This document shows positions 4,292 through 40,300 of a DNA stretch of 64,000 nucleotides, one piece after another. The stretch lies in assembly GCA_048213135.1 (NCBI GenBank), contig PS015442.1:14194-78193 (forward strand), in the 5' to 3' direction. The notes below the pieces were generated by a model. The model searched no databases. It was not told the DNA's origin and worked only from the letters and a program-made list of their open reading frames with translations. The position numbers were made by a program, and so were the translations under genes. Positions within the stretch are counted from its first letter, which is position 1. The number at the start of each line of letters is the position of its first letter. This DNA is from Reclinomonas americana ATCC 50394. Its lineage: Eukaryota.

Positions 4292-5496
4292 ATGCGCATT
4301 GTGCACGTCACGGGCTTTGAGGAGGACGGCTCGTTGCTGGCACGTGCGCCACTGGTGGAGTGGGACGACGACGATGAGGAGCTGCAAGTGGGCGTCGTCC
4401 GTCGACGACTGATGCAATCGGTGGCTGGCTGCTGTGAGCTGCGACTGGTGCACGTCACTGCTCGCTCCCCACGTGTGTGTCTCTTGCTCTCTCACTTGTG
4501 TGTGTGTGCAGTCGCGTCGCGATCACAGTGAGCGAGCGATGCAGCGTGGTCTGATTTTGGCGGCGCCACTCGATGAGGACGATGAGCGGGTGCGACGCGA
4601 TGAGACGCTGTATGTGGTCGTGGTGTGCGAGGTGCGCGAGGTGCCTCTGTGGAATGCGCGGGTGCGAGTGGGCGTGTTTGCCGGCGATCTGTTTGCGATC
4701 AACGCCGATGCTGTTGTCAATCCGGCCAATGAGGCATTGTTGCGCGCAGCGAGAAAAGGGAAGGGAAGGGGGAAGTGCGGATCGCAGCCACTGAGCGAGA
4801 ATGCACAGACTCGGCGGTGGCGGTTTCGATGGCATGATCCACATGGTGGCGGGACAGGTGCTGCAAGACGAGAATCACAAGCTGCCCGGAGAACTGGTGG
4901 TTCGTCTTTGCGTGTGAGCAGGTGGTGATCGTCGCGATTGCTGTGCCCCCTCATCGCTGCGGTGCAGTACTCTCTTGGCGACATTGAGTTCCGCGAACGA
5001 TGTCGTGCGTCTCTTGCTCCCACGTCTGTGATCGATTCGCGCTACATGCTCACTTTGCCACACATGCAGCCGATGGCGGTGCGGTAATCACGCCGGCTGG
5101 CCACTTGCCGTGCCGGTACGTAATCCACGCCGTGGCACCGTATCTGGACGAAGAGGGCCGACCAAAAGAGCGCCTCCTGCGGGAGACGTACGCCAACTGC
5201 TTTGCGCGTGCCATGGAGACGCCCGACGTGCACTCGGTGGTGTTCTCGGCGCTCAGCGTCGGTTTCTACGGCTACCCCATCGTGGAGGCGACGCGGATTG
5301 CTCTCGAGTGCACCAAGCACTTCCTGGAGGAGGTCGATCGCGAAGGCAAGCTGGAGCGAGTGCTGTTCTGGTCGATGGCGTGCAGCACAACCGAGACGCG
5401 GAGATTTTTGATCGTCGCGTGCTCGAGGAGGAGATGGAGAGGGTGTTTGGAGCGGCAGAGATTCGGAAGGCCGAGGATCGGGGGGGAGGGGAATGA
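4292..5496 (+). CDS. Macrodomain protein (MacroD/YmdB-like ADP-ribose or O-acetyl-ADP-ribose hydrolase) with an N-terminal extension; apparent 1-nt frameshift near the 3' end
   Basis: Spliced translation gives GDLFAINADAVVNPANEALLGGGGFDGMIH, AVITPAGHLPCRYVIHAVAP and SVVFSALSVGFYGYP, which are the classic macrodomain motifs. Confidence 0.9.
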
Positions 5497-6128
5497 AGGC
5501 GATGGGGCAAGTGAGATATCGGAGGAGGAAACGCATTTGCCGGCATGCGCAATTCATTCAACATCTCCAAACAAGCAACAACCAGATGACTTGACCCGAC
5601 TAGATCTCAACATAGCTGTTGCTTGCTTGTTGGTGAATTGGGGTTGTTTGTTGCTGAAGATGATCCCTTTTGCAGCAGCTGGCCATGGTCGAAATCGATG
5701 TCGAAGCTCTGCAATTTATCGCGACCGGCAATTCGCCTGATATCGATACTCTGCGCACGACACAGGCAAGGAGAGGAACAGGTTCAGTGGTGAAGACCTC
5801 CACGAGTACAAGGAAGCTGCAGCCTTTCCAATTACAACGATTCCGCGGCCACAAAATTTGCGAAGTCAAATTCACAGCTCTGATCCTGCAACTGCACAAG
5901 CACCAAGAAGTATCGCATCACGTACTGCCTTGTGCCGACATTGTACGCGCAGTTGGAGTTGGCCTTTGCCAGCACCGCTTTCATGTCACGACGATCGACG
6001 GTCCATCCGATCCACCGACCGATCGTTGCTCTTCGCGTGTGTGTGCACGTGTGTGTCTCTCTCTCTCTCTGTGTGCGCACACACCCACGTGCGTGTGTGT
6101 GTGTGTGTTACAAAAAAAGGCAGTCGCC

Positions 6129-11381: not shown

Positions 11382-12571
11382 TCAAATCATCGACGCAGAT
11401 CGCAGCATTGCTGGCGAAAACGACATGGGGGGCAGCGCTGCACCCGCCGACGACGACGACTCAGGAGGTGGCGGCTGCATGGTAACGCGGATGAGATCCT
11501 CATAGTCCCTTCTCAGCACCTCCTCTAGCAGATCCACCAGACGCGGGTTAGGCTCCAGCGTCGGCAACACCATTCCGCCCGCATCGTCGACCGGTGGTCC
11601 CGCCCGCACAAAGACCTCGGCTCGCAGCGCCACCCCAAACAGCTCCCGCAACTCACGTACCCGACGTGCAAATGGATCATCGCGCGTAGAAAACGGCACA
11701 AAGCGCTGTGGTGGCGACGGTGGTGGCAGCTGCGACGACTGCATGTATCTATTACCGGCAGCCGTGGGCGACGGGATCACCGGCGATAGTTGCTGCTGCA
11801 GCAGTCTCTGTTGCTGCTGATAGGCCGCCATGCCCGGCGGCAACGTGCGCATTGCCGGCGGCGCTGGCGGTGGCGGCAACGGAGGAGGCAACGGTGGCGT
11901 CTGCGACGTACTCCGTTGCCTTCTCATCGATCCGGCTGCAGTCGCGGTTGCGGCTGTAGGTGCGCTGGACATGGCCATGGTTGTTGTCGATGTTGTCGAT
12001 GTTGCAGTCAGGTTCGGTGGCAGACCGAGCAATGGTGGCACCGAGGCAGCAGCGGCATTGCCAACTGGTGCTGCAGCGGGCACGGGGCGGAGGAGCAGGG
12101 CCGCCGAGGTCGACATCATTGTTGTCGGCGATCCCGAACTCATCAATACGGGGGACGATGGGGAGGAATTGGAGCCGGCCTCGCTGCCGTCGGTGAGCGG
12201 TGTTGAGCATGCAGACTCGCCCGCCGCCAGCGGCAGGCTGCGGCGCGACCCAGGCGCCTGTGCACTTCTTTCTTCAGCAACAAGAGAAGAAGAGGGGAGA
12301 GGGCGAACATGGCCACACACGAAACGACAGGTGGTCCTAGCAAGCCCGACTTGCGCAAGGCGCGCTTGACCTTGGCACGTCGATTCTGGAACCACAGGTT
12401 GATCGACTTTTCCTCGCGGTTCAACACAGCCGCAATCCGCAGTCGCTGTGTCGAGGTGCAACGATAGCAATCAGCTGCACAATACAGGATTGCAATAAAC
12501 GAGTGACGGGAGACGCAACTTCTTCGCGCGACGGGTACGGCGTCGTGGCGAATACGTTCTCTAGCAGGCTC
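11382..12571 (-). CDS. Homeodomain protein with a Pro/Gln-rich C-terminal region; 5' exon(s) further upstream, unresolved
   Basis: Spliced sequence SLLENVFATTPYPSREE|RLRIAAVLNREEKSINLWFQNRRAKVKR contains the WFQNRRAK helix-3 signature. Confidence 0.9.
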
Positions 12572-14144
12572 TGCGAGAGGGAGAGGAAGAGGCAGGTGGG
12601 TACATGATGATTGGTTAAAAACATCACAGGCAGACTGTCTCAAAAAGAGAGTGTGCGTCGCGGCGAGTTGCCCCGGCACATGACCGATGCATTGGCACAA
12701 CGCAGCCGCCGCTTTTGGCCATAAGGAGGAAGACAGCGAGGAGATTGCGGCATCAACACAGTGTGCAATATCACGCGCAGTAAATCCCAAGGCAGTGCAG
12801 AACAGCATGGCACGCAGTGGCATGCACAGAGGCACAGTGGAGAAAAAATTTGTGATCAGACGTGGGTCGGGACATACCAAAGAGGTTGAAAAACGACAAT
12901 TGCAGCGCGTGCGTGTGCGGCAGACAATGACGCGATGTGCGTGGAGTCCAAGGAAGAAGCGACACACGACAAAAAAGGTAAAAGGTGTGTGTGGAAAGGA
13001 AACACAAATCGGACGGCAGAAAACAGAAAAAGATAAACGGCTGTGCGCTGTCGAGCTCCATATGGTGCAGAGGGAAAAGGGGAAAGAATTGCGATGTGAC
13101 AGCGTGTGTGCATATGCGCTAGGGGCAAACGCAACCGCACAGATGGTAACGGAAGCGATTGAGAGCGAAAATCCATCGAGTGTCAGCAAACAACATCGCG
13201 GGGCTGTTTGTGCCGAGTGATGAAACGAGCAAACAGGCGACTGGTTGCCGATTTCTTCTCACTCTCACTTGCTCTCTCTCTCTCTCACACACACACTCAC
13301 ACTCTCCGACGCGCACATACACACACACACACACTCACTGCCTTAACACGCCTCAATGCACTACACGGCAGCAGCCAGCAGCAACACAAAGGAAAACATG
13401 CAATGTGCAGCGGCAATGCAACCAATCAAAACGTGATTTTTCGGCCACTGCTCACACGCGCTCACTCTCTCTCCCTCTCTCACACACACTCATGCGCACT
13501 CACCTCCATGTCACCAAACACGGGACTGGCACTGGCGCGTCGCTGGTCGCGACGCGCAGCAACCTCCTTGCTCATCGGAGGAGCACACACACACACGCGT
13601 GTGGAGAAGAGTGTGGTGGGGTAGTGTGTCGCACACACACTGGCAGTGATGCTTTCAGGTGGTGGTGGTGGTGCTGACCACCTCACCAATAAAAGCGCGC
13701 TCTCTCGACACAGAGACTGAGAGCGAATGACGATAAGACGGACGGGACACACACGCACTCACCAGAGGTGACAAACGGTGATGTGTCCGCACTCACCACT
13801 CGTCGATATACTGTCCGCCACCTCCTCTTTCTCTTCCACTTCTCTCAGCTTGCGCAGAACGACAATCACGAACGAAAAAAGGAAAGGAAGAAAATATAAG
13901 GTCTGGTTGGTGCGGTGGGTGGTGGTGCGAAACACAACACTAGCGCGCAGAGTGCGTGAGACTTGCTTCTTCGTGCGCCTCGCCCCCTCTGTCTCCTTGC
14001 CCGTGCTCAAACTCACGTGCACAGTCTGTTCTCTCGTGTTCGGGTTCGAGTGTGCGACAATGGTTTCCCTGTGAGGAGATTCAAATGAGATGCGGCATAC
14101 GCAGTCTGCTCTTTCACGTGCATGTCTCAAACGGGTGGACACAT

Positions 14145-17509: not shown

Positions 17510-19581
17510 TCAGTACTCGCGGTCCCAGTCGGCTTCATACAACAGGTTCTCCACCAAGTGCTCCGAGGCTGGGCTGGTGACATCGGGGGCCTGTGAGAGT
17601 TCGCGTCGGAGCCATCGTTTGCAGTTTTCCTCAAACAGCTCGACCACATCTGGTAACGCAAAGTTAGTTGTCGTCGTCTGGCGCACTTGTCGTGCTGGCT
17701 CTCTCACCTCGGGTTCGCGTCGGTGCCGCCACGTGCGGTGTAATGTACGCGTTGCGGCGCGTCCACAGTGGATGCGAGCTGGGCAGTGGTTCTTCGGGGA
17801 ACACGTCGAGCACGGCGGCGCCGAGCCAGCCGCTGTCGAGTGCACGCAGGAGCGTGTCCAGGTCGATCACGTCGCCGCGGCCGACGTTGATGAACACGCA
17901 GCCTCGCTTGCAGTCCGACAGCACGCTACCGGCCAGCAGATGTCGTGTGCTGCTGGTGCTCGGCATCACATTCACAATGTAGTCGCACCCGCTCAGGAAG
18001 CTCGTCAGCTGCGTCCGTGTAAACGTAATGTCCACGTGTCGCAGTGGCCGGTGTGATTGCACAAAGCCCCACACCTGCACCGATGGGGATTCAGCAGTCG
18101 GCTCACGACGAAGTTGAATTGTGTGAGCTGATGCGCGACAAACCTCGGCGCGGAACTGCTTGAGTGCAGCACACACGCACTGGCCAATGTCTCCACCGGC
18201 ACCCATGACGCCAATTATTAGCGACGACACGGGTCGTGTGTGAGTAAAGTCCTCCGGCTGCCACCTGGATTGCAGCTGCGCGTCGCGCATCGACAGCAAT
18301 CGTCGTTCCATCGACAGCACATACATCAGCACGTATTCTGCCATGGCCGGTCCAAAGACGCCACCGAGTCGAGTCAGCACGAATCGCTGCAGGGTGCGAT
18401 CCTCCTCTACGAGATAGAAAAAAAGAGGAGTGAGTTACTCGTGTTTTTCCCTTTCTTCTCTAGCGCAGACTTTGGCGGTCACGCAACGCTGCTTCATGTC
18501 GCCCACTTTGGCCGCCAGCACGGCCAGTTCCTCGGCCAGCGCCTACTCACATCATCAGCATATCGCTGACACGGTGCGCCACAGATCTTGCCGTCACACT
18601 CACCTCACTCTGCTCGCGCAGCGGTCTCGTCATCTCCAGCATGAGTGAAAACGACACAAACGCCGACAACCACTTGTACAGCACTCCACACGCCTTGCTC
18701 GCCCGATTCACGCTCTCGTACGAGTATTGTGAGCAGTTCAGGAGCCGCGCATTGACGAAATCGCGCACTGGCCGACGCATGCGAAGACCCGTGTTTTGGT
18801 CCGTCAGGCGCTGGAAAAAGTCGGGTCTCCGCACCATTCTGTGCACGCACAAATAATTGTCACGCAACATCATCATGTTTTCTTCATCACACAACACACA
18901 CCTTCTTGTCTCCTCCCAGTCCACCGGCGTACTGAAATCATTCATCACGGCGCACACGGCCAGCAAGCACGCACGCACAGCCTCCGGGGGATTCGTCAAT
19001 GAGCGCGACTCGTCGTGATATCTCTTCTCAATGGATGCCAGCAGTGCCATGGCTTCCTCCACCGCCGGCGCAGTGGCCGACAGCGCCTCCTCCAACTTGG
19101 CCTTGCGTGCCTCCAAGTCGGCAGTGCGTGTCGCCAACTCGGCCAGTAGCTCATTCTTCCTGCGTGTCAACTCGGTCAGTTGCTCTCGATCCGCACGGTG
19201 TTGCTGCATCAGGGCATCGACACCGGCCGTGGTGGCCTGGAACCACTGCGCGACAGTACATGTCATTACAAAAGCAAGGCCAATGATGTGTACACGTGCC
19301 TGTGCGGACCAACCTTGAGATTCGACGCATGCTTCATCAGTGGCGCCAGTCGTGCAGGACTGCCAACGGCAATCTCCACCGTCCTCAGCTTCTCCGCCGC
19401 CGAGCTCTCCTCTGCCGCGGCGAACGTGAGAGGCAAGAACGAAAAAAGGCAAAGAATAATATGCTTGCAGCGCACCTTCATCCGCGGCAATCTCCACGAA
19501 ATCACAGTAGGGGCACACTTCGCGCAAGCTCTCCACCAGACCCGTCAGCTTGCCACTCAGCACGGCCACTCGCTTCCGCAT
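17510..19581 (-). CDS. D-2-hydroxyacid dehydrogenase (GhrA-like glyoxylate/hydroxypyruvate reductase family) with an inserted dynein stalk and microtubule-binding domain; 8 exons, 535 aa
   Basis: Exons 19581-19476, 19411-19314, 19245-18902, 18838-18604, 18542-18488, 18406-18144, 18074-17708 and 17649-17510. All 7 introns are GT-AG and the total of 1608 nt is in frame. Enzyme motifs: NLKWFQATTAGVD, LTRLGGVFGPAMAEY, GVMGAGGDIG, FINVGRG, LDVFPEEPL, ITPHVAA. Insert motifs: NPPEAVR, YESVNRASKACGVLYKW. Confidence 0.9.
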
Positions 19582-19655
19582 GGTGGAAAACTCTGCATAC
19601 CGCGGTCGAAGGGTAAGAGAGGGAGAGAGGAAGCAATGCTTGAAGACTCGCGGCA

Positions 19656-21872
19656 TCACCAACCGTGCGACAGCTTGATGAATGCAAGGTCCGAGTTGCG
19701 TCGATCTTGCAGAATCGCCGCCAGCTGCCTCTCCTCCTCCTGCTCACTGTGCAGCAGGAGCGACTCGTGTGCCCGTTGCCGCTCGCGAACCTGCTGCTGC
19801 AGAAACTGGCCACTCTGTGGTCGCCGAAGCGACCCATTCACCTTCTCGCGCGCCACAATCGGACCCTCCTGCAACAGCGTGGCCAACAGGCGCGCACCCG
19901 GTGTCGACGGCGGCGACGATGACGGCGACAGCTGCATCCGCTCAATGCCACTTACTTCACCACTCCCGCCCCCGCCACTGCCACCACCACCACCACCGGT
20001 GCCCTTCCATCCCGCCGTCCCCGGTCGCGCCTTTTGCATACCCATGACCGTGCCAACAGCATTAGCAGGGCCGACGGCCGCCGGAGGAGCCGTGGTGGTG
20101 GTCGTTGTCGAAGAGAGTAGGAGAGCAGATGCACTGCTGACACTGGTACCCAGCAACGCTTCGCGCAAACTGCATCGCAGTGCCGCCAGTGATTCCGCAG
20201 ACGGTGGTGGTGGCGGTGATGGTGTGCGTGAGCGCGACTCGAGTGGTGGAGGCAGTATGTCGTCCACACCAGACAACGATCCGGCAGCCGACAAAGCACG
20301 CTCATCCAACGATGGACGAGTGAAGCCGATAGCAGTCTGAGCACGCCGAGGCGGCGGCTGCACTCTGCCACTGTTGTCCCTCCGTGACTCCTTCTCCTCC
20401 CGCAGCCAGCGATACTGCTCCAACACAACACCAGGTTTCACATTGTCTGCCGATGCCATCACCACACCACCACCGTCGCCATCGTCGTCAACACCGTCGT
20501 CACCGCCACTGTAGTCATCGCCGTAGTCATCATCGTCACGCTCACCGCCCACCACCACATCATCATCGTCCTCGGTTGCGCCGGCAAAGCGGCCCCCACT
20601 GCGAGTCTGCGACAGAAACGCACCACGATCGTCACTGTTGGTGCGCCGCGACTGCGTCGAAGAAGAGGGCTTGGCGCCGGTGCCGCGCACCAACGCCGAG
20701 CTGGCACTGCGTGTCTTCAACAGTCGACTCTGTCGCTCCACTGCTGCCGCCGACATGCGCTCCTCGCCCTGTGCAGCTCCTGCTGCTCCGGTGGCGGCGA
20801 CAGCTGATCGACTCGCACTGGAGGTCGACGGACGTCGTCCACGGTCGCCGGTCGAAGACGCGGAACGCGCCTGTCGCGTGCTCTTGGTGGAGTTGGCCAT
20901 CAGAGGCACGGTGCGCGCACTCGACCGCCGTGATGATGACGACGAGTCACCACCACCACCACCGCCACCACCATAGCCACCATCGCCGACAGCATCGACT
21001 CCTTCAGCGGCGTGATTTGGAAACGGCAACGGCTGCGGTCCGCTTGCCGCTGCTGCTGCCGTTGCTGCACTGCCGCCCTTCCATGCCGCGTGCGCAGTGG
21101 CCCACGAATTCTGCTTGGACGACAGCCGCGGTGCATTGCGCAGTGCGTCGCTCGCGGTGTGGCCGAGTGCTGAACTCGAGCGCGGCGGCAGTGGCAACGA
21201 TGGTTCGGGCGACACTGCGCCGGGCCGCGTTAATGATGCAGACTGCGCCAAAGAAACACAGTAAGGAACGAATGCCACACTCGCACGACACAGCAGCGGC
21301 GGCACACACGCACCCGCGGCGCCGGTCGCACGTGCGAACCCAAGATCATGCCCGACGCGAGTCGACCGCGCACCTCGTCGTCGGCGGCGCCGTCGTCATC
21401 ATCATCGTCGCCGAGGCCCAACCGCTTTGCCGAATCACCCAGTGCGTTGCGCATCGCAGCGGCGATCTGTGCCGACCCCAGTACCTGCGACGGCGAAGGG
21501 CGGCGTCCACCAGGCGCCGTTCGCGAACGATGCAGCTCGTGTGTCAGTCGACGAGCCGGTGGCGCTGCGCAGCACACGAGTGAGAACAGATGGTTGAGAG
21601 AAAGAGAGAGGGAGGGAGAGAGGAAGAGGCAGCGATCGCAAACCTTCGACGCCCTCTCCATACACCGCCGCGACGCGCTGCAAATCGGTTCCACCTATAC
21701 ACCATGTTAACAATCACTCCTCCTTTCCTCTCCCTCTCCCTCTCCCTCTCTCACGCAGACACATACCCGCGGCGGTGGTGTTGGCGCGTTGCAAGGCATG
21801 CGAGTGAGCGCGCTTAAGCACGGGTTCGCGCTTGTGTTGCAACAGCATCGACGTGGCCTCTTCCACACTCAT
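19656..21872 (-). CDS. Low-complexity Ser/Ala/Gly/Arg-rich hypothetical protein, spliced
   Basis: Long open frame at 19656-21305 plus frame-compatible upstream exons starting MSVEEATSMLLQHK; no family recognised. Confidence 0.55.
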
Positions 21873-24498: not shown

Positions 24499-26709
24499 AT
24501 GCGAGTTGGCAGTCGCGCGATGGTGCATTGTGCGCGGTTGTGGTTGCCGCGTGTGCAACGCAGCGAGGTGTGTGTGCATGCGTCTCCCTGCCCCTCTCCC
24601 TCTCTCTCTCTTTCTCTCTCACACACACATGCAGCGGATAATCAGTGTGAGGTGATTGGTCGCGTTGTGTCATCGACTGTGGCCGTGCTCGACAATGGAA
24701 CAGTGCTGTTGGGCGCGGACGATGAGGCATCGACGTTGTGGTTCGATGCTGCTGAGGTCACGTGTCGGTTCACTGTACTGGAGGCGCCGTTGCGTTGCCT
24801 TTTGTGGGCGGTGTGTGAGCGGTGTGATTGTGCTGAGGAGCGAGTGCGCAGATTGTGCGTGGAGACGAGCGATGGGCAGCAGGCGGTGTTTGATAATGTG
24901 CAGGCGGCGTTGCAGGGAGAGGAGGAGGAGGACAAGGAGAGTGTGGAGCAGTGGGAGTGGATGCTGTCGAGGGTATGCGTCTTCATGCATTGTGCTCACA
25001 ATCGCCCACTCACTCATTTGCGCAACAGGTGCGGCTGGTGCCGTCGGTGCGAGTGGCGTTGCGACAGTCGCGCACTCCGGCGACGAGGGTGACTCTTCCG
25101 TCTTTCTGCATGCGTTGTCCACTGCCACCTCACTGTGCGTCCACAGTTGTTGCGCTTTCCGCCTTGGGTGCGCTGGATGGTGCAGGTGCATCTGGCGCAC
25201 GTGTTGTTTCGCATTGCCAGCTGGTGTGGTCTGTGGTCGCCGCAGGTGCGCGCGCTGTGAGCTGTGTGAGTGATCCTCCCAGCCAATCGCTTAGCCTCCT
25301 TTTTCTCTCCACGCAGAGCGCCAGCATCCCCGTGGCCGGTGCTGCGGAGAAAACGAGCTCCATTGGCGCCCGACTCACTGATTTCTTCCTCGGCCGCTCC
25401 GCCACTGCCGTGCGCGAGATGCTTTCCCGCTGGCACGCGTGCTATGCTGCCCTCCGCTCTCGACACTCGCGCAAGGTTCGATGCCTGAAGAAGAAACGAC
25501 GCACCGAGTGCCCTTCTCCTTATCAGTGGCGATGCAGAGTGTGCCACAGTTCTTCAACGTGTTTGTCGCCTCTGCCGGCTTTGTGTGCTCAGCAGTGATG
25601 GATTCCGTGTGTGGCGCACTCCTCTTTGTGTGCCTGTGCCACACAGCCACGGTTCGGAGAAGCAATGGATGTTCCCCCGCTCACATCACAACTCCTCATC
25701 GACATCATTGAGTGCGTGCAGACGTGGCTTCCATGGGCGACACACACGTTTGGGGAGCACGTTCCGCGAATGACACAGGGTTTGATGGAGCAGTTCCGGC
25801 ACACACCGGCTGGCTTCAAGCCGAATGAGCCACTCAACGGCTTTCTGATCGGCATGACCACCGAGACCATGGAGTTTGCACGCAGTGAGTCGCGTTCTCA
25901 CACTCCACGTCTCATCACTCCTTCTCTCACCCTTCTTTCACGCTCAGCCTACGTCGCCACCCTGTTTGGGTGGCTGCCGCCCGCGGCGGTGCTCCTGCAC
26001 CACCGATTCGGAACAGAAGCGACCGCACTGGCAGCGGCGCTGTTCGGCTGGGTGGTGGGTCTGCGTGTTGCCGCTTGCTCGGCTGTCGACATGGTGCTGC
26101 TGGCCCTGCTACCGCTGCGACTGCTCTCGGTGCTCTTTGTGCGGCTGTCGTGGGTCGCCGTGTCGGTGCTGCGCACGCTCACTCGTCTCCTGTCGGGTTT
26201 GTGTGCGAGTCCATCTATCTTGTGAAGGATTGTCTTGCTAATTATAGTGTTCTATACAGGGAGCAAGTACAACGTTCTGAAGAATCGCGTGGACAGTTGC
26301 GATCCCGGCGTGGACGCACTGGCGCTGGGGGCACTCCTGCTTGCGGTGCTGTTGTGTTTGGTGCCGACGTTGGTGCTGCACTTTGGTTTCTACTGGGCCG
26401 TGTCGGTGCGCTGCGGTGTTCTCCGCAGTTCCTTCCCGTGGCGTGTATCGCTCACCTCCCTCGCAGGCCAGCATGTACGGGACGTGGTGGCTGGTGGATG
26501 CGGTCACACGTGCGGTGATCAGCGCTGCGCAAGCACTCGGCACAAGTGTCGTGCGTGCCATGCATCCACAGATGCAACGAGGTTGGCAGTGCCCTGCACC
26601 CTTGACCTCGACGCCACACCAATCTCACGATTGTTCTCGGTCTCACGCAGGCGGCGAGACGGTAAAGACCGTAGACGGACAACTCCATCTGCATCTCGTG
26701 TCGCGTTGA
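24499..26709 (+). CDS. PIGQ: GPI-GlcNAc transferase subunit Q (Gpi1/PIG-Q)
   Basis: TPAGFKPNEPLNGFL and LLSGSKYNVLKNRVDSCDPGVDALALGALLLAVLLCLVPT match the Gpi1 motifs (PAGLKLN; GKKxNVLRxRxDS...QLxxGTxLFTxLxFLxPT). Multiple TM segments. Confidence 0.85.
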
Positions 26710-26909
26710 TTCCACGCCGCCCTCGTTTGATCGCACCCGCATCAAGTGCGTGCCTGAGGAGAGGCCTCTTTTGCACTCTCCAAGCCAGAGACACCGTTTC
26801 TCTCATAAGGCGATGGAATAATGGAAGCAAAGCAATCGCTGCTGCATCATCATCAAGACGTCAACCTAATGTTTCTTCCTCCTTCATTCTCAAACAAACA
26901 CCCCTCCCA

Positions 26910-29718
26910 TTAGTCGACATCCTCCATCACATTGTCGACCGCCGCCACCGGCTCCAACGGCGGTGCGCCCGAGCCGCTGCCGGCCGAGGCCATTGGCACA
27001 TCATCGTCGAGTGACAGGCCGAGCTTGATCATGCGGTAGATGCGTGAGGCGTACGAGGTCGGCTCCTCCAGGCTGAAGCCCGAGGTGATCAGGGCCGTGT
27101 CGAACAGCAGGAAGATGAGGTCGCGCACGGTCTTGTCGCCCTTGTCGGCGGTGGCCTTGTTGCGCAGCTCCGCAATGATCGGGTGGTGCGGGTTGATCTC
27201 CAGCGTCTTCTTCGACACCATGTAGGTGGCCATGGTGTTGTCGCGCAGCGCCTGCGCCTTCATGATGCGCTCCATGTTCGCCGTCCAGCCGTACTGGCCA
27301 GTCACCAACACCGCCGGTGAGTCGACAATGCGGTCCGACAGCTTGACCTTCTCCACGCGCTCTCCGAGGATCTCTGCGCGAGGTTGACAAAAGCGAGAGA
27401 GGTGGTGAGTCGTCAACACCAAGAGTGAGAAAAGAGAGTGAGCAAGTAGAGACAAACCCTTCATGGTGGTGCAGAGGCTCTCGAAGCTGGCCTTCTCCTC
27501 CTCCTTGCGCGCCTTCTCCTCCTCAGAGTCCTCGAACTCCAGGCCCTCCTTGGTGACGCAGACCAGCTTGTGGCCCTCGTACTCCTTGAGCTGCTGGACG
27601 CAGTACTCGTCAATCGGCTCGGTCATGAAAAGCACCTCGTAGTTGCGGGCGCGGCAAGCCTCAATGAACGGCGACTTCTCCACGGCCTTCTTGCTCTCGC
27701 CCGTGATGAAGTAGATGTCCTTCTGGCCCTCCGGCATGCGGGTCACGTAGTCGGCCAGCGAGGTCACCTGATCCTCCGACGCCGTCGAGTAGTAGCGCAG
27801 CAGCTCGGCCAGCTTCTTGCGGTTGTCGGCGTCCTCGTGGATGCCGAGCTTGATGTTCTTCGAGAACTGCTCATAGAACTTCTCGTAGTCCTCCTTGTTC
27901 TCCGAAACTGTGTGCAAGCAAAGGCGGGAAGATGAGCAAGAAGAACAAGAAAGAATTGGAAANNNNNNNNNNNNNNNNNNNNNNNNNNNNNNNNNNNNNN
28001 NNNNNNNNNNNNNNNNNNNNNNNNNNNNNNNNNNNNNNNNNNNNNNNNNNNNNNNNNNNNNNNNNNNNNNNNNNNNNNNNNNNNNNNNNNNNNNNNNNNN
28101 NNNNNNNNNNNNNNNNNNNNNNNNNNNNNNNNNNNNNNNNNNNNNNNNNNNNNNNNNNNNNNNNNNNNNNNNNNNNNNNNNNNNNNNNNNNNNNNNNNNN
28201 NNNNNNNNNNNNNNNNNNNNNNNNNNNNNNNNNNNNNNNNNNNNNNNNNNNNNNNNNNNNNNNNNNNNNNNNNNNNNNNNNNNNNNNNNNNNNNNNNNNN
28301 NNNNNNNNNNNNNNNNNNNNNNNNNNNNNNNNNNNNNNNNNNNNNNNNNNNNNNNNNNNNNNNNNNNNNNNNNNNNNNNNNNNNNNNNNNNNNNNNNNNN
28401 NNNNNNNNNNNNNNNNNNNNNNNNNNNNNNNNNNNNNNNNNNNNNNNNNNNNNNNNNNNNNNNNNNNNNNNNNNNNNNNNNNNNNNNNNNNNNNNNNNNN
28501 NNNNNNNNNNNNNNNNNNNNNNNNNNNNNNNNNNNNNNNNNNNNNNNNNNNNNNNNNNNNNNNNNNNNNNNNNNNNNNNNNNNNNNNNNNNNNNNNNNNN
28601 NNNNNNNNNNNNNNNNNNNNNNNNNNNNNNNNNNNNNNNNNNNNNNNNNNNNNNNNNNNNNNNNNNNNNNNNNNNNNNGGAGGAGGTGAGCACGACTGAA
28701 AATAATTCAACTTCGAAGCGAGTGACGCAACATCCTCAATGGTCAGCGTCTTGGCCTCCTTGTTGGGGATGAGGCGGATGCGCAGCTCCGGCTCGCCAGC
28801 CAGCACCGACGGGTCGGTCAGGCTCATGTAGCGGATCTTGTCAATGGCCTGCGATGGGAGAGTGCTGTCGTCAGCAACTAGTACTAAAAATAACCCCAGG
28901 AAGAAGAAAGCGTGACAGGAGGCAGCCACTCGAGATGTGAGGAGAGTGCATGACACAGAGGTGAGAGACGGAGAAAGAGACAAGGAAACGGGACGAGGAA
29001 GAATGCGACGAGTGGCGGAAATGTGCACCGCCATCGACAACACACGCCACGTCAGCAAACTGCACCAGTCGCATCGACGAGGGGTGGGATGCTGCATACA
29101 CAAGAGAGGCAAAGAGACACACGAGTGTGCACGACGACAAGGCTTCTGCATGCATGGGTGGGCGGAAGACAACAGCGCGAGGAGGCGTGCATGTGCAGCT
29201 CGGGCGGAAATGTGCAACCGGACCCTNNNNNNNNNNNNNNNNNNNNNNNNNNNNNNNNNNNNNNNNNNNNNNNNNNNNNNNNNNNNNNNNNNNNNNNNNN
29301 NNNNNNNNNNNNNNNNNNNNNNNNNNNNNNNNNNNNNNNNNNNNNNNNNNNNNNNNNNNNNNNNNNNNNNNNNNNNNNNNNNNNNNNNNNNNNNNNNNNN
29401 NNNNNNNNNNNNNNNNNNNNNNNNNNNNNNNNNNNNNNNNNNNNNNNNNNNNNNNNNNNNNNNNNNNNNNNNNNNNNNNNNNNNNNNNNNNNNNNNNNNN
29501 NNNNNNNNNNNNNNNNNNNNNNNNNNNNNNNNNNNNNNNNNNNNNNNNNNNNNNNNNNNNNNNNNNNNNNNNNNNNNNNNNNNNNNNNNNNNNNNNNNNN
29601 NNNNNNNNNNNNNNNNNNNNNNNNNNNNNNNNNNNNNNTTGTTGCGGATATGTAAACACCCAACACCCCCCACACACACCTGCTGGATCTCAGCCTGGAA
29701 CTCAAATGTCTCCGACAT
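26910..29718 (-). CDS. HSP90: Cytosolic heat shock protein 90; interrupted by two N-gaps
   Basis: [57 protein letters not shown] and C-terminal MEDVD. Confidence 0.98.
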
Positions 29719-30602: not shown

Positions 30603-31260
30603 TCATCTCTCGCGATCGCGATCATCGCCCGCCACATGCACGTGAGCATGCGCGTGCGCGGCCGTCGGAGCACTCCGACTATTCATCCACGACAGAATCG
30701 CCGTCCACACCACACTCATCGCACCCACAAACACCACCGGCGCGCTGCCACCGCGCGGAATGTAGCGAAAGTTGATGACATTGGCGAGGGGCCAAAAGGC
30801 GGTGCCCAGCACAAACGCCGTCGGCACATTTCGTTTCGCATGCTCCACCGCCTCGTGCGCCGTGCCGCCCTCCAGTAACCGAATGGCGGGGAAGAACATG
30901 CACAAGTACACCGGAAACATGGTCACCTGCCCCGTCAGGCTCTTTCGCAGCGCCCCGCGAAAGCCGCCCGGTTGCGCCGGAACCCACCGATCCAACGCCC
31001 GAAATGCGTCTGTGTTCACTGTCATCATCTCAGCACAGCACGCACACACAGCGAAAGAAGGCGCAACAGTAAAAGTAGGGCCCGTGCATGCAAGCACCAA
31101 TGAGCGCGAATCGCCCCACGCGCTCCCAGTCCCACTCCACACGCGCGAGACCATGCGCCTCTGCAGTCACTGCTTGGCACAGCATGTCGCCGCCACTGAG
31201 CATCACGCTCGAGGAGAGCGACGAGCGCAGGAGCGGATGGCGGAGCAAAAAGCCGAGCAT
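30603..31260 (-). CDS. Mpv17/PMP22 family membrane protein, 2 exons
   Basis: GDMLCQ, WDWERVGRFALIG..HGPYFY|YAFRALD, FWPLANVINFRYIP and WTAILSW. Confidence 0.92.
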
Positions 31261-31432: not shown

Positions 31433-34400
31433 ATGTCGCTCTTCCAGGTGTGTGTCTCTCTCTGTGTCTCTCTCTCTCTTGCTCTCTCTCTAAGGTGTTG
31501 TGCAGGCGCGTGAGTGGTGGGGCACGAATGCCGGTCACGATGAGGAGTTTGGTGACGGCTGTCTGTGTGTGGCCAATGTCGACAATGATGCAAGTGGTGC
31601 CGGTGAGTGAGCGCACACACGCGCGCACACATGTGTGTGAGAGAGGGAGTGTGTGAGAGTGNNNNNNNNNNNNNNNNNNNNNNNNNNNNNNNNNNNNNNN
31701 NNNNNNNNNNNNNNNNNNNNNNNNNNNNNNNNNNNNNNNNNNNNNNNNNNNNNNNNNNNNNNNNNNNNNNNNNNNNNNNNNNNNNNNNNNNNNNNNNNNN
31801 NNNNNNNNNNNNNNNNNNNNNNNNNNNNNNNNNNNNNNNNNNNNNNNNNNNNNNNNNNNNNNNNNNNNNNNNNNNNNNNNNNNNNNNNNNNNNNNNNNNN
31901 NNNNNNNNNNNNNNNNNNNNNNNNNNNNNNNNNNNNNNNNNNNNNNNNNNNNNNNNNNNNNNNNNNNNNNNNNNNNNNNNNNNNNNNNNNNNNNNNNNNN
32001 NNNNNNNNNNNNNNNNNNNNNNNNNNNNNNNNNNNNNNNNNNNNNNNNNNNNNNNNNNNNNNNNNNNNNCCTTCAACACCAACATGGAGGTGCAAGCGTA
32101 CAAGTTTCACGTGCTGGCCACGGCCTCGGGCTCTGCCGAACGGAAACGCGAGTCATCTGGTGCGCTTTTGCTTTTTTGTATTCATTTCACCTTCCCCTTT
32201 TTCTGAAATGCCCGCACCGTCAGCTCCCTCGGGCAGTGGAGCGAGTGGCTCGGGCGACGGCTCGTCCTCCTCCTCGTCGGGTCCCTCTGCGGCCGCCACA
32301 GGACCCGGCTCTGACGGCAAGCAGCTGCAGGCGGAGTGGTCGCTGAATGTCGGCGAGCACATTTACGAGATCCGCACGGGCAAGTACTCGAAGAGCCTCG
32401 CTGCGCAGCAGGTCGACATTATCTTGCTCGGCGAGCGTTCGCTCTTCTGCGTAAAGGAGAATGGCGCCATCCGGCAACAGCGGCGGTTCGACTTTTTCCC
32501 CAGCTGCTGCATCACGTACGACGTGACGCGTGAAGGTGCGACTCCAAATCTTTGCGGTTGTCGTGTGCCCTTGTATTCATGCATGTGTGCTTGTTTTGTC
32601 GCTGCAGCGGGTGGTGCCAGTGCCGCAGCAGCACTGCAGAATCTGCTGGTTGGCACACACAGCAGCTCGATGGTGGTGTACCGCGATCCACAAGTGGTGT
32701 GGTCAGCAAAACTGACGTGCACCCCGATTTCACTGCGTGTGGCAGCGTTCGGGTGCGTGCGCGCTCTCTCCTTCTCCCCTGCACGCCCGTGTAGGTGTTG
32801 CTTCCGCTCACGGGGCATTGTGTGCAGTGGTCTGCGCGGCCTGGTCGTGTCACTCAACGAACAAGGGCGCGTGCTGGTGACGTACATGGGTACGGATCCA
32901 GCATCGAACCCCGTATCGGTGGGCGAGGGCAAAGAGATGGACTACGCCGAGATGGATGCGGAACACAAGCGTTTGCAGGCGCACATTCGAGAAGCGCAAG
33001 CGAGTTTCGTTTCCCGCAGGCCGCCATTCGTGTCCTTTCTCCATCTCACCCACCTCCTCGCACACAGCTGGCAAAATTGCACGGAGGGAGGGTGTGACAC
33101 TAGATGTGCAAGTGCCGTCAAATTGCGACACGCGAATTCCGCCAGGTGAGCACACAACCCCTACGTCGCCCCGTGTGTTGTGGTGGTGGCGTCGGTGCTT
33201 AACGTGCGATTGCGTGCAGAAATGCTCGAGGAGCTAGAGGCCGATCTGTCGGATCACCTGGGAGGGCGGCCGCGAGTCAAAGTCGCCAATGTGCGTCTGT
33301 ACATCAACTACACTGGAAGCGAAGAGCTCAGCAGTCTCATGCTGAACGTGAGACCACCACCTGGTGTGCGTGTCTCGGAGGAATCGATCACCATCCCATC
33401 GCTCAGTTGCGTGTCAACCCTTCTCTCTGTATCTGTTCTTGTGCGCTGGTGGTGGTGGTGGTGGCCGTTGCCGACTATTTTCTTCCGCTCTGCTGGTGGC
33501 GCAGGTGGATCGGGTCGTGCAAGGACGCCGCTGATGGTGCCGCTGGTGTTCCTGTGCGACGGCACCAAACTGCCCGTGTCGCTGGATGCCGAGGTGGTGT
33601 GCACGTACACGCTGCCGTCGGGTGAGCCGCTGTGTGCGCGTGCGGCCTTCTCGCTTCCGTTCAGCCTGGTGGGTTCGGTGGTGCCGCCCGTCAAGAATCC
33701 CGATTTCAAGGTCCGACTGCTGGCATGCCGATGTGTGTACGTACGTGTTCTAACGGAAGAGACGACTGCAGGTCACCTTTGACACCAATAAGCCGCCGGT
33801 GCTCTTGTCGACCCTGTTCGAGGACGTGATTGCGAGCAGCTCGGAGGATGCGCGCTCCGTCGTCACACCCAATGTCTTCACATTCCAGTACCTAAATCAG
33901 GCCGATGCCACCATCCTGGTGTCGAAGAAAGCCGGTGTGTGTATGTGTGCGCGACTGTCTCGAGGTTGCCTCGCTCCACTCACCCCACTCGCCTGCACGC
34001 AGATTCGGGACGATATCGAGTGCAGGCCGGCAGTTTCGAGGCTCTGTGGCTGCTGAGTCACGAGCTGGTGCGCCGTCTGGAGCAAGATGCNNNNNNNNNN
34101 NNNNNNNNNNNNNNNNNNNNNNNNNNNNNNNNNNNNNNNNNNNNNNNNNNNNNNNNNNNNNNNNNNNNNNNNNNNNNNNNNNNNNNNNNNNNNNNNNNNN
34201 NNNNNNNNNNNNNNNNNNNNNNNNNNNNNNNNNNNNNNNNNNNNNNNNNNNNNNNNNNNNNNNNNNTCCTGCGTGAGTGCCTGTCACCGATTGTCAACGA
34301 CTGCGGAGACCAGGGCTGGGAGGAGGTCACCGATGCCGCCATGACCCACTTGCTGCGCACGGCATTGGCACGGAGCGCCAAGGAGAGTTCCAGTGTGCCG

Positions 34401-37338: not shown

Positions 37339-40300
37339 ATGAGCGCAGCAGCGAAGCGAGTGGCGTTCTCTGCTGGTGGCGACACGAGCGATGCGGTGCT
37401 GTCCTCTGTGACGTTTGTCTTGCCGCCGGGCACAGTCGCATCCAATGAAAAGAGCAACAACAAGCGAGGCAAGAAGAGTGGCTCGACCACGACGACCACT
37501 GTGGCAACCAGCACGCGTCTCGAGGACATTATGATCAGTGGAGACCATGAGGTGCGTGGGAGAGCGCGTGACAAGTTCGCGCCATTTCTCACTTTTATCA
37601 CACGCACACGCAGACTTTGTTGGCGGCGCTCGACGTCCCCGCCAACTCACGTCCTCGACTCGGCTACGATCTCGGCGTGGAAGTCGTGTTTGAGGCTGTC
37701 ACATCCGATCGACATGCGCCTCTGCTACGGTCTGTCTGTGTGCGCGTGTTGGTGTCACTCACACTCATCACTCACTCGCACGCAATCAGTGGCGTGTTGA
37801 GCAAGCGACCGGAGTTGGCGCACTCGCGCAAGCACGGCAAGACACCGCTCTTCAGCGCCGTTCAGTATGAGTGCATTGAGGTGCGATTGAGAGAGGAGCC
37901 GTTGTGATTGCCTTGATTGCCTCATTCAATCGATTGATGGTGGTTGGCAGTGTGTTCGCGCGCTGCTGGAGGCCGGTGCCGAGGTGGAAAGCAACGCGGC
38001 GGATGAGTACGGCGTGACTCCGCTGGCACTGGCGGCCAGCATCCCCAGCACGGATATCTTTATGCTGCTGCTGCGCGACTTTGGTGCGTCGGTGTATGCG
38101 GTCGACAAGTGTGGCGAGACGGTGCTGCACAAGTGTGCCATTAGCGGCGATGTGCTGATCATGGAGGCGGTGCTGCGCGAGTTTAAGCCCTCAGACCCAC
38201 GCAGCAAGTGGTCGTCGATTGAGGAGTTTGTGTCGGTGTTGGACTCGGTGGGTCAGTGCGCGGTGCACTTGGCCATGTGTGATGGGTTGCGTCTACGACT
38301 GTGTCTCCCTGGTGTTTTCTGTGCACAGTCGCTGACTGTGCGGGTATTGCAGGAAGCTGTCGCCGCTCTACGGTGCGCCCAAGTCAAGAACACCTGTCGC
38401 GAATGCCGCTGTGGTTGGTGTGTCGGTCAGGGAGTCACCGCCCAAGACGACTCTGGTTTCGGTGGCCAGCAAGAAGCAGGCGAACAGTGCGGTCGGCTTG
38501 GTGTCGGGCGAGGGAGTCGACGGTGAGCATGCCACCGTGGTCGACCCGGAGCTGGATGGCGTCGACGATGAGGCGTTGCAGGAGGAGGTTGTGGACAGCG
38601 ACACGGGCAACATGGAGGTCTCGCAAATCATGCTCGATCTCTTGGTGCGCTTCTGCCCCAAGCTCGACTTTTGCGTGCGCGACGGGCGCGGTTTTGCCCC
38701 GATCCACTACACTTGCTCCGTCGGCAACGCCGACACCACGGCACGCCTCATGATCCTCACACGCAGACCAAACGTGATGAGCAAGACGGGACGCACGCCA
38801 CTCTTTGTCGCCTGCATGCACGGCTGGTTCGAGGTGGTGGCCAACATGCTGGACGTCGCCGAAGAGGACCAGGAGATTTGTCTGCAGCAGGCCGAGGAGG
38901 GAATGCGCAATCCGGCCGCGCCCAGCTCCTCCAAGTCCCCGACCCCGATGGAGATCGCCATCAATGCGCCCGACATCAAGGGTCGCACGCCGCTCATGAT
39001 GGCGTGCAAGCGCGGCTCCGACTCTTGCGTGCAGCTGCTGCTCGCCGAGGGTGCAGCGGTGAACACCATTGAGAAGCCGTCGCGCGATTCCCCACTGCAT
39101 GCGCTGGCACGCAACACCACCGATCGCGCGGGTGCGCTGCGTGCGCTCCAGCTCATCATCACCGAGGCCTACATTGGTCACAATCTGATTACCTATCGTT
39201 GCGTTGGTCGCCCCCCCTCCACTGTCGTGTCGTGAGAGAGAGATTCTCATCTCCGAGTCTCCCCCGACTGCAGCCAACCACGCTGGCCGACACATTCCCA
39301 AGCCCGCCGCGCTGGCCGATCTGCTGTACCACTTCAACAGCGAGCAGATGAACGCCTTTGAGGTGGCGGTGGAGTACAAGAATCGGGAAATGGCACACAT
39401 TTTGCGCCGCTACATGGTGCGTCCATCATTTTGTGAAGCCCTCCCACTGTCAGCAGTGCGACTCAACGCGTGTGTGTGGCAGGACGCGGTGATTATGTGG
39501 CGACCGGGTGGATACCAGCCGTTGACCGAGGACGAGGAACGCAAGGTGCTGCAGCGCCACGAGCAACTGCAACAGGTGATGATCATGCGGCTGCGCGAGG
39601 AGCTCGGCTACACGGTGGCCACCGAAGACGCCGTCGCAGTGCGACCAGATCGGCCGTTGGCGGCGATTGCTGCCGAGCCGACTCCGGCGCCGACCTCGGC
39701 TGCAGCTCCGCAGTCACCACCGAGCGGCGCCGTGTCGCCGCCGGCCACCAATGTGCGTTCACGAGGTAAGAAGGGTGGCAAGACTGCGGCGTCGGCCACC
39801 GTCGTGGAGCGCCACGAGTTGCCAGTGGTGTCGGAGGCCGACAAGGAGAATGCGAATCAGTCGCCGGTGCCAGCGTCGGCGAAATCAAAAACCGCCAAGC
39901 TGGGTGTCGAGGTCACCACAGTGGCGACCACCAAGAAGAAGGGTGCCGGCAAGAAGGCGGCTGTGATGGCCGCGGCGGCACCAGCCGGCAAGGCCCGCGT
40001 GTTGATTGTTGCGTCGTCGCCGCGTCGAGACCGACTCCGTTGCCTTTCTCTGACTCGCACTCGCGTGCCGATGCACAGAGCTCATCTTCCACCGCCACAC
40101 ACAATGTTAACGTGGGCGGCAAGCAAAAGGGCGGCAAGGTGTGTGTCGCGGGCAAAAGCATATGTCTGTCCCATTCCGCACTCACCAACTCGCCCCCCTT
40201 TTGCAGGCCTCCAAATCAAACACCAATACCACCAAGGGCTCGACCGTCGCCAGTGACAACACGTCGACGGTGGAGGTCACGACGACCAAGGTCACTCGCG

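Follow-up and report, generated by a model that had tools for sequence, protein, structure and literature searches.

The 64,000-nucleotide stretch of Reclinomonas americana ATCC 50394 DNA analyzed here (contig PS015442.1, positions 14,194 to 78,193 of the forward strand; hereafter the window) carries on its minus strand, from position 19581 to 17510, a gene for a D-2-hydroxyacid dehydrogenase (2HADH) into which the stalk and microtubule-binding domain (MTBD) of a dynein are inserted. A splice model from the genomic sequence predicts eight exons and seven GT-AG introns, which together give a 1608-nt coding sequence and a product of 535 amino acids (aa) in a single frame, with no AAA+ domain. 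The exons and introns are listed below in the order of transcription; CC1 and CC2 are the two coiled-coil helices of the stalk, and H1 to H6 are the helices of the MTBD.

19476..19581, minus strand: exon 1, with the ATG at 19581 and the start of the substrate-binding domain (MRKRVAVLSGK...); in-frame splice model, whose N-terminus aligns with homologues
19412..19475, minus strand: intron 1, 64 nt, GTGCGC...CAG; the frame change from exon 1 to exon 2 requires an intron
19314..19411, minus strand: exon 2, substrate-binding domain (beta3, alpha3)
19246..19313, minus strand: intron 2, 68 nt, GTTGGT...CAG
18902..19245, minus strand: exon 3, beta4, the AGVD loop (19227-19216), all of CC1 (49 aa from AGVD to the CC1 proline) and MTBD H1-H2; matches dynein heavy chains in the PDB
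18839..18901, minus strand: intron 3, 63 nt, GTGTGT...CAG, within the MTBD, in frame and stop-free
18604..18838, minus strand: exon 4, MTBD H3-H6 and the start of CC2 (TRPLREQSE); dynein matches
18543..18603, minus strand: intron 4, 61 nt, GTGAGT...TAG; explains a +1 frame change, and the dynein alignment stops here
18488..18542, minus strand: exon 5, CC2 helix (ALAEELAVLAAKVGDMKQ)
18407..18487, minus strand: intron 5, 81 nt, GTTGCGT...TAG; takes out an in-frame TAA at 18437-18435
18144..18406, minus strand: exon 6, return linker, beta5 (LTRLGG), domain-crossing helix and Rossmann loop GAGGDIG (18203-18183)
18075..18143, minus strand: intron 6, 69 nt, GTTTGT...CAG, in frame and stop-free
17708..18074, minus strand: exon 7, strand B VWGFVQSHR (18074-18048), NVGRG (17888-17874), DVFPEEPL (17807-17784) and TPHVAA (17741-17724); matches PF02826 and 3hg7
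17650..17707, minus strand: intron 7, 58 nt, GTGAGA...CTAAC...CAG
17510..17649, minus strand: exon 8, C-terminal helix back to the substrate-binding domain, DWDREY and then the stop; the ending matches the family

The introns range from 58 to 81 nt and are 41-55% GC, the exons of the gene being 61%. An initial annotation of this DNA had read the interval 17708-19245 as a fusion carrying the motifs NVGRG, DVFPEEPL, TPHVAA, GAGGDIG, and VWGFVQSHR. All five were located on the minus strand, but across spliced exons and not in one open frame: the interval comprises exons 3-7 and introns 3-6, exons 1, 2, and 8 fall outside it, and its two stop-bounded frames, 18547-19743 (398 codons) and 17664-18434 (256 codons), are mutually out of frame. 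Introns 3 (18901-18839) and 6 (18143-18075) could be read as protein, and were taken as introns because their codons are precisely what the relatives lack. The 21 codons of intron 3 fall in a gap of the alignment with yeast dynein and are absent from all three aligned fusion homologues; the 23 codons of intron 6 are missing from each of the 16 other aligned sequences, and their excision restores the spacing of the family. The end of the product, DWDREY, resembles the family endings RGY and KEY.

For intron 5, the 81-nt interval has an unusual donor following an exon end other than G (agc/GTTGCGT, the slash marking the boundary), and it keeps the frame. With it, the linker from the CC2 proline to LTRLGG is 34 aa, compared with ~35 and ~36 aa by hand count in two homologues. 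Two other intervals were considered; GTAACT...TAG (32 nt) broke the frame, and GTCTGC...GAG (66 nt) kept it but was dropped for its weak donor and unusual acceptor.

That the assembly is at fault here, or that the locus is a pseudogene, with the frame breaks and the in-frame TAA as true lesions, is very improbable. Such a view can point to the lack of a contiguous ORF, to a draft assembly with eight runs of N within the window, and to a gene model drawn from genomic sequence alone. Nevertheless, each break in frame falls at a GT...AG interval 58-81 nt long, excision of these intervals leaves one 535-aa frame whose length and ends agree with those of homologues, and both in-frame intervals are exactly the segments that all relatives lack. 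An intronless, trypanosomatid-like pseudogene, suggested by GC content and long ORFs, was rejected for the same reason, i.e., that each break is a short GT-AG interval; a code with reassigned stop codons, judged by eye only, would leave the frameshifts unexplained.

Both ends of the gene model merit comment. Upstream of exon 1 lies a frame of 579 codons (19664-21395, minus strand) that is of low complexity, rich in Ser, Ala, Gly, Pro, and Asp, and without a match in Pfam. Because its stop is only ~75 nt from the ATG of the gene, the protein may have a long disordered N-terminal extension, to which the following candidate would be the connection.

19593..19663, minus strand: candidate extra intron, 71 nt, GTTGGT...CAG; would join the 579-codon frame (21395-19664) in frame to exon 1 (...AFIKLSH/EFSTMRKRV)

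At the other end, exon 8 (17540-17600, minus strand) contains a 17-aa insert in the C-terminal segment, about LSQAPDVTSPASEHLVE, that is present in no homologue; it is probably real coding sequence, as no GT-AG interval that would excise it was seen.

The inserted module is most similar to the tip of the cytoplasmic dynein-1 stalk. In the PDB, the MTBD frame matched the yeast dynein heavy chain (expect value, E, of 8.7e-21), mammalian dynein-1 (~6e-13), dynein-2 (~2e-6), and axonemal dyneins (1e-3 or worse). A profile built from four stalk/MTBD segments of the fusion family described below gave 2.6e-42 to ~1e-38 for dynein-1, 5.4e-22 for DNAH6, and ~1e-20 for dynein-2; the module is by sequence of the cytoplasmic dynein-1 type. 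Both hinge prolines are kept in the window (TAPAV and TRPL), with exactly the spacing to N-P-P that is found in dynein. Between AGVD and the first of these prolines, 37-47% of the CC1 residues are charged in the six sequences counted, which would suit a stiff, solvent-exposed helix.

The tubulin contacts are also largely present. In the sections of Nishida et al. (2020, PMC7042235) drawn on here, the residues of yeast Dyn1 that form salt bridges with tubulin are K3117, E3122, and R3124 in H1, R3152 and R3159 in H3, and R3201 in H6. By hand mapping on the PDB alignment, five of these six are retained in the window (K, E, R, R, and R), and the position of R3152 is occupied by Glu. The same sections state that Dictyostelium dynein lacks both H3 arginines and uses neighboring basic residues instead; T-R-R directly follows the lost R3152 position in the window and, by analogy, could substitute for it. 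A module that no longer binds microtubules, having been repurposed as a helical bundle for some other partner or as a structural arm, is unlikely. That idea is favored by the long branches of the fusion MTBDs, by a salt-bridge set reduced to between three and five of six residues with R3152 lost in all four lineages, and by the lack of a reported PF12777 match on the window frame. It is countered by the five contact residues and two hinge prolines of the window copy, by family-profile matches to dynein-1 MTBDs at ~1e-40 across H1-H6, and by the Dictyostelium precedent.

The remainder of the protein is a dehydrogenase. The C-terminal frame matched PF02826 with E 1.4e-39 (135.7 bits; the cut-off is 25.1), and 158 PDB sequences matched at E ≤0.001, among them 3hg7 (2.9e-34) and Escherichia coli GhrA (1.2e-24). 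The former, which is the nearest solved protein, is an uncharacterized protein of Aeromonas. The initial annotation had noted retention of the catalytic Arg, Glu, and His, and this extends to all 10 sequences of the family (the window and nine others), as does retention of the Asn and Gly flanking Arg in NVGRG. The Ala-Gly of the beta4-alpha4 loop (AGVD) is kept in all nine sequences that cover it. In the excerpts of Matelska et al. (2018, PMC6303947), which also describe the roles of the triad, the substrate carboxylate is held through the backbone amides of two residues of the beta4-alpha4 loop, a small one and a Gly; the assignment of AGVD to this loop is our own mapping, by position in the AlphaFold2 (AF2) secondary structure. 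Since the triad and the putative carboxylate loop are conserved between lineages that are less than ~35% identical, catalysis has likely been retained.

Cofactor and substrate are less clearly indicated. According to the same excerpts (PMC6303947), preference is set by the betaB-alphaD loop, a conserved Asp denoting NADH and the fingerprint [ST]R[ST]X[RK] of the GHRA subfamily denoting NADPH. The window loop has no Asp, in line with the earlier observation that no acidic residue ends strand B, and the NADH signature is thus removed. The suggestion of NADPH use as in GhrA was upheld only in part: V-Q-S-H-R in the window stands against S-R-S-R-K in Salmonella GhrA (P0221), and only two of the four defined positions of the fingerprint match. 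In addition, the GHRA-specific Trp of the beta3-alpha3 loop is Gly in the window, although this is a weak test, as the automatic alignment was poor and IAVGSP was aligned with ALVWQPP of GhrA by hand. The Rossmann loop is indeed atypical; GAGGDIG corresponds to A-x-G-x-x-G after an extra Gly and is one residue longer than in most relatives, which read G[LCG]G-x-[IV]G. A preference for NADPH is plausible on sequence grounds, whereas identity as a GhrA is not established.

The arrangement is not confined to Reclinomonas. The same build was found in nine database proteins, viz., a 587-aa transcript product of Physarum polycephalum (P0002) and eight metagenome proteins (P0090/P0235, P0007, P0224/P0236, P0225, P0226, and P0227), of which P0007 (JGI) is 570 aa long. 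With the window protein these make up the set of 10 used here, five further members of the P0227 cluster having been left out. The 10 sequences represent four lineages, with pairwise identities of 21-35%. In all of them the insertion lies at a common site, between A-G-V-D and L-T-R-L-G-G, and CC1 differs in length by no more than one residue between the four lineages aligned. In P0226, CC1 shows a gap of ~12 residues; like several of the metagenome sequences, this protein is truncated at its N-terminus.

Different queries recovered different parts of this family. Exons 6 and 7, with longer proteins allowed, retrieved 13 proteins, two of which (P0002 and P0007) have the same insertion at the same site. 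An exhaustive search of representatives with the MTBD exons gave 356 proteins at E ≤0.001, and among the 150 listed, only P0090 also matches the dehydrogenase exon. The four-segment stalk/MTBD profile found 13 proteins, six of them fusions (P0090, P0007, and P0224-P0227) and seven dynein fragments, and a cluster look-up added P0235 and P0236. A profile of the whole fusion matched 61 proteins at E ≤1e-20; most are plain dehydrogenases, and P0002 is the only fusion among them. A search of the ESM Atlas returned no usable match. A scan of metagenome DNA with P0235 yielded two distant loci of 36-39% identity, restricted to C-terminal dehydrogenase residues, which were not used. Three proteins (P0014, P0016, and P0134) that were the top scorers of the MTBD search with multiple matching stretches, and so resembled tandem MTBD arrays, were rejected as translated tandem repeats sharing short words with the MTBD query. 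In the databases, identity to the dehydrogenase exon did not exceed 43% (P0001), and no protein of a close relative was retrieved.

Whether the fusions arose once was examined by phylogeny. In a free tree of the enzyme columns, they lie in an unresolved group with plain eukaryotic forms (Branchiostoma, Stereomyxa, and oomycetes) and enterobacterial GhrA. Forcing the 10 fusions into one clade gave a log likelihood 2.87 better than that of the free tree (p of the approximately unbiased test 0.597); a single origin is thus not rejected, but neither is it proven. In the tree of the stalk/MTBD columns, the seven fusion rows split from 45 full-length dynein heavy chains with a Shimodaira-Hasegawa-like approximate likelihood ratio (SH-aLRT) support of 99. 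P0001 (581 aa; JGI/ENA metagenome), the closest plain relative, is itself fused to an N-terminal domain of the agmatine-deiminase type (PF04371), and the oomycete relatives P0003 and P0004 have N-terminal extensions of ~200 aa. This branch of the 2HADH proteins seems prone to fusion events.

AF2 models were made with alignments for two complete homologues. Their confidence is given as the predicted local distance difference test (pLDDT) and the predicted template modeling (pTM) score.

P0002: pLDDT 89.2, pTM 0.74; beta4 at 109-112, CC1 at 118-178 (61 aa, from the D of AGVD), CC2 at 295-316 (22 aa), coil at 317-330, beta5 at 331-333
P0007: pLDDT 84.7, pTM 0.65; beta4 at 92-95, CC1 at 101-161 (61 aa), CC2 at 276-291 (16 aa), residues 292-310 with pLDDT <50, beta5 at 314-316

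In both models, the insert prolongs helix alpha4: the helix that comes after beta4 passes into CC1 without a break, and beta5 is where the chain eventually rejoins the enzyme. A Foldseek search with the P0002 model matched 3hg7 (E 1.4e-22; TM score 0.89 on the target), followed by structures of NADPH-dependent GhrA; since the alignment to 3hg7 extends across the insert, the two-domain enzyme fold is predicted to be intact. The segment that returns from CC2 varies in length; it is rich in Pro in Physarum, and longer and rich in Gly and Asn in the P0007 clade. These models bear out the suggestion that the substrate-binding domain anchors the stalk at either end, and the two ends flank active-site loops. 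What the models do not contain is a long coiled coil with its registry set at an AAA+ base, as the AAA+ domain is absent and CC2 extends for only 16-22 aa before giving way to coil or a disordered linker. CC2 would not be rigidly fixed to the enzyme, and the base could not set the registry of CC1 relative to CC2.

These features bear directly on the proposal, also made in the initial annotation, that the enzyme either locks one registry or couples ligand binding to it. Allosteric coupling of this kind, in which ligand-driven closure of the domains shifts CC1 against CC2, or microtubule binding alters the active site, is unlikely. There are grounds for considering it: CC1 directly continues alpha4, whose N-terminal loop (the A-G of AGVD) is the loop mapped to the carboxylate; beta5, where the chain enters the enzyme again, adjoins the beta5-alphaA loop, another part of the pocket lining according to PMC6303947; and the length of CC1 is held constant to within one residue over four lineages. 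However, CC2 is short and the coil that follows is flexible (disordered in P0007, and different in length and composition between lineages), and for this reason registry locking or ligand gating is not expected. If one of the two strands is free, sliding of the coiled coil need not pass to the enzyme or come from it. Moreover, according to PMC7042235, microtubule binding itself induces the alpha registry in the dynein MTBD, and an unconstrained MTBD attains the tight registry on the microtubule unaided. A variant that emphasizes the single continuous helix from the carboxylate loop to H1 of the MTBD, through which microtubule binding would shift CC1/H1 and tune the enzyme, or closure upon substrate or cofactor would tune microtubule affinity, likewise seems rather improbable. 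If true, it would describe a natural enzyme whose activity reports or depends on attachment to the cytoskeleton.

Dimerization through the cofactor domain had also been anticipated, and a prediction for a homologue agrees with it. Two copies of P0090 (residues 9-508, trimmed for size and N-terminally incomplete) gave an ipSAE interface score of 0.81, compared with 0.00 for the best of three controls; the runs agreed on at least 84% of contacts, with partner pLDDT of at least 70. As a guide, the ipSAE mark was reached by 20 of 30 structures with pairs of the same chain and by 1 of 23 single-chain structures, these counts being rough because our own alignment was used. All confident contacts lie within residues 273-477, which belong to the dehydrogenase; the stalk and MTBD contribute none. 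Dimers of 2HADH enzymes are textbook knowledge and a like complex has already been solved, so this result may reflect memory of such structures, and it is evidence of resemblance rather than of binding. Dimerization by way of the cofactor domain is likely.

The predicted dimer is equally relevant to the main rival explanation, a CtBP-like microtubule-associated protein that senses cofactor, where a dimerization switch dependent on NAD(P)(H) raises avidity for microtubules or cross-links them and catalysis is secondary. The plant CtBP relative ANGUSTIFOLIA has been linked to microtubule arrangement. As described in the excerpts of PMC6303947, the triad is preserved in CTBP-subfamily 2HADH proteins, whose dimerization is driven by bound NAD(H); the location of the predicted interface in the cofactor domain and the conserved geometry of the stalk would also fit. 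On the other hand, a carboxylate loop and a full triad in every lineage exceed the needs of a sensor, and the betaB-alphaD loop does not have the CtBP-type Asp. Overall, we regard a cofactor sensor as possible but considerably less probable than not.

The best explanation, to which we assign a probability of about one half, is a catalytically competent, homodimeric reductase that is tethered to microtubules by two arms. The enzyme would belong to a GHRA/DDH-like branch of the D-2-hydroxyacid dehydrogenases and would probably be a 2-ketoacid reductase, either preferring NADPH or accepting both cofactors. Helix alpha4 of its substrate-binding domain would be extended into a helix of ~61 residues equivalent to dynein CC1, with an MTBD of the dynein-1 type at the tip; a short CC2 helix and then a flexible linker would lead the chain to beta5 again. 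In the absence of a rigid anchor for CC2, the MTBD would be expected to act as an unconstrained dynein MTBD, sampling low- and high-affinity registries until the microtubule itself pulls it into the tight-binding one. The protein would thus be a constitutive microtubule binder, made bivalent by dimerization, that positions a redox enzyme on microtubules.

Several points weigh against this explanation. The structural predictions are for homologues only, P0002 and P0007 as monomers and P0090 as the dimer. The stalk ends adjoin active-site loops in those models, so some coupling between the two activities may exist. Retention of the triad is no proof of a metabolic role, as CtBP-type 2HADH proteins keep it too, and these act mainly as sensors. 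A GHRA fingerprint for NADPH that is half matched, together with the missing GHRA Trp, leaves substrate and cofactor uncertain, and the Rossmann loop of the window deviates from GxGxxG. On the microtubule side, PF12777 had no match on the window MTBD frame in Pfam at E up to 1, although both PF12777 and PF02826 are precomputed on P0002. Outside the window, the salt-bridge residues are fewer by hand count (four of six in P0002 and three of six in both P0007 and P0090), and R3152 is in none of them. Finally, the fusion MTBDs form long branches, and their grouping may be artefactual.

Comparison with known systems places the fusion between several precedents. With the stalk and MTBD of cytoplasmic dynein-1 (yeast Dyn1, 9mfv and 6kjn; mouse/human DYNC1H1, 3err, 5ayh, and 3wuq) it shares the six-helix MTBD, the spacing from the CC1 proline to N-P-P, both hinge prolines, and five of the six salt-bridge residues, and no large gaps interrupt the alignment of CC1 and the beginning of CC2. 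Unlike dynein, however, it is without AAA+ ring, linker, and strut; the base of the stalk is a dehydrogenase, and with a CC1 of ~61 residues and a CC2 of 16-22 residues plus a flexible return in the models, that base would set no registry. The engineered chimeras of seryl-tRNA synthetase and MTBD (3err and 3j1t), chains of which are among the best PDB matches of both the MTBD frame and the family profile, are alike in that a dimeric enzyme carries, on one of its helical elements, a grafted MTBD with a truncated coiled coil. They are man-made, and each of the two stalk helices runs on from a native, rigid coiled coil, by which the registry is fixed, whereas the fusions are natural, occur as a family in at least four eukaryotic lineages, and have only CC1 continuous with an enzyme helix.

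The enzymes of the GHRA/DDH group (E. coli GhrA, 6ovl and 6p35; Sinorhizobium meliloti GhrA, 4weq; the Aeromonas protein, 3hg7; Haloferax Ddh, 5mh5) have the two-domain fold modeled for P0002, the same triad, NVGRG, and A-G loop, also lack an NADH-type Asp after strand B, and have the dimer interface in the cofactor domain, as predicted for P0090. The fusion differs from them by the insert of ~210 aa after AGVD, V-Q-S-H-R, Gly in place of Trp, and the extra residue in the Rossmann loop. CtBP and ANGUSTIFOLIA provide a parallel for a 2HADH scaffold in a non-metabolic role in cell biology, the oligomerization of CtBP being cofactor-dependent according to the excerpts of PMC6303947, but they have no MTBD, carry the NADH-type Asp, and act via partner proteins rather than by direct binding of a dynein module to tubulin.

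A full-text literature search, with most subscription journals and supplements outside its coverage, returned no description of a dehydrogenase-MTBD fusion or of any natural MTBD outside dynein; to our knowledge, and in the searches made, descriptions of the dynein MTBD place it at the tip of the motor and nowhere else. In the present case, a metabolic enzyme has acquired it, always at the same site and on a stalk whose length is conserved, and the combination persists in at least four distant eukaryotic lineages, including Physarum. A dehydrogenase with a built-in dynein stalk and MTBD is a rare architecture, whose probable role is to hold the enzyme on microtubules and not to act as a switch; with the flexible return of CC2, constitutive binding driven by avidity is to be expected over registry gating. 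The fusion is a natural counterpart of the engineered synthetase chimeras, offers a small, motor-free system for studying how an MTBD binds microtubules, and exemplifies the apparent targeting of a redox enzyme to the cytoskeleton; its retained active site makes enzyme assays worthwhile. A practical consequence of the in-frame introns and the GTTGCGT donor is that ordinary gene finders will break such genes in the R. americana genome.

The surrounding DNA is that of an ordinary gene-dense, intron-rich eukaryotic scaffold, ~58% GC and with the eight runs of N already mentioned. Of the 78 stop-to-stop frames of at least 175 codons in the window, 74 were scanned with Pfam, the two frames of the gene itself and two antisense frames over it having been left out. 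Matches were to Macro, Homeodomain, PH, Gpi1, Mpv17/PMP22, the GAE domain of PTHB1 (BBS9), ankyrin, G-patch, and NHL. Those to Macro, Homeodomain, Gpi1, Mpv17/PMP22, ankyrin, and G-patch are exon-sized and are accounted for by the following frames:

4988-5737, plus strand
12146-13258, minus strand
25599-27011, plus strand
30606-31166, minus strand
37891-39232, plus strand
40719-41426, minus strand

The Gpi1 match is split across two frames, and that gene is thus interrupted by an intron. A further exon-sized frame (33150-33779, plus strand) matches the PTHB1 (BBS9) GAE domain with E 1.2e-07; because a subunit of the BBSome is encoded in the window, the sequence suggests that the organism builds cilia or flagella.

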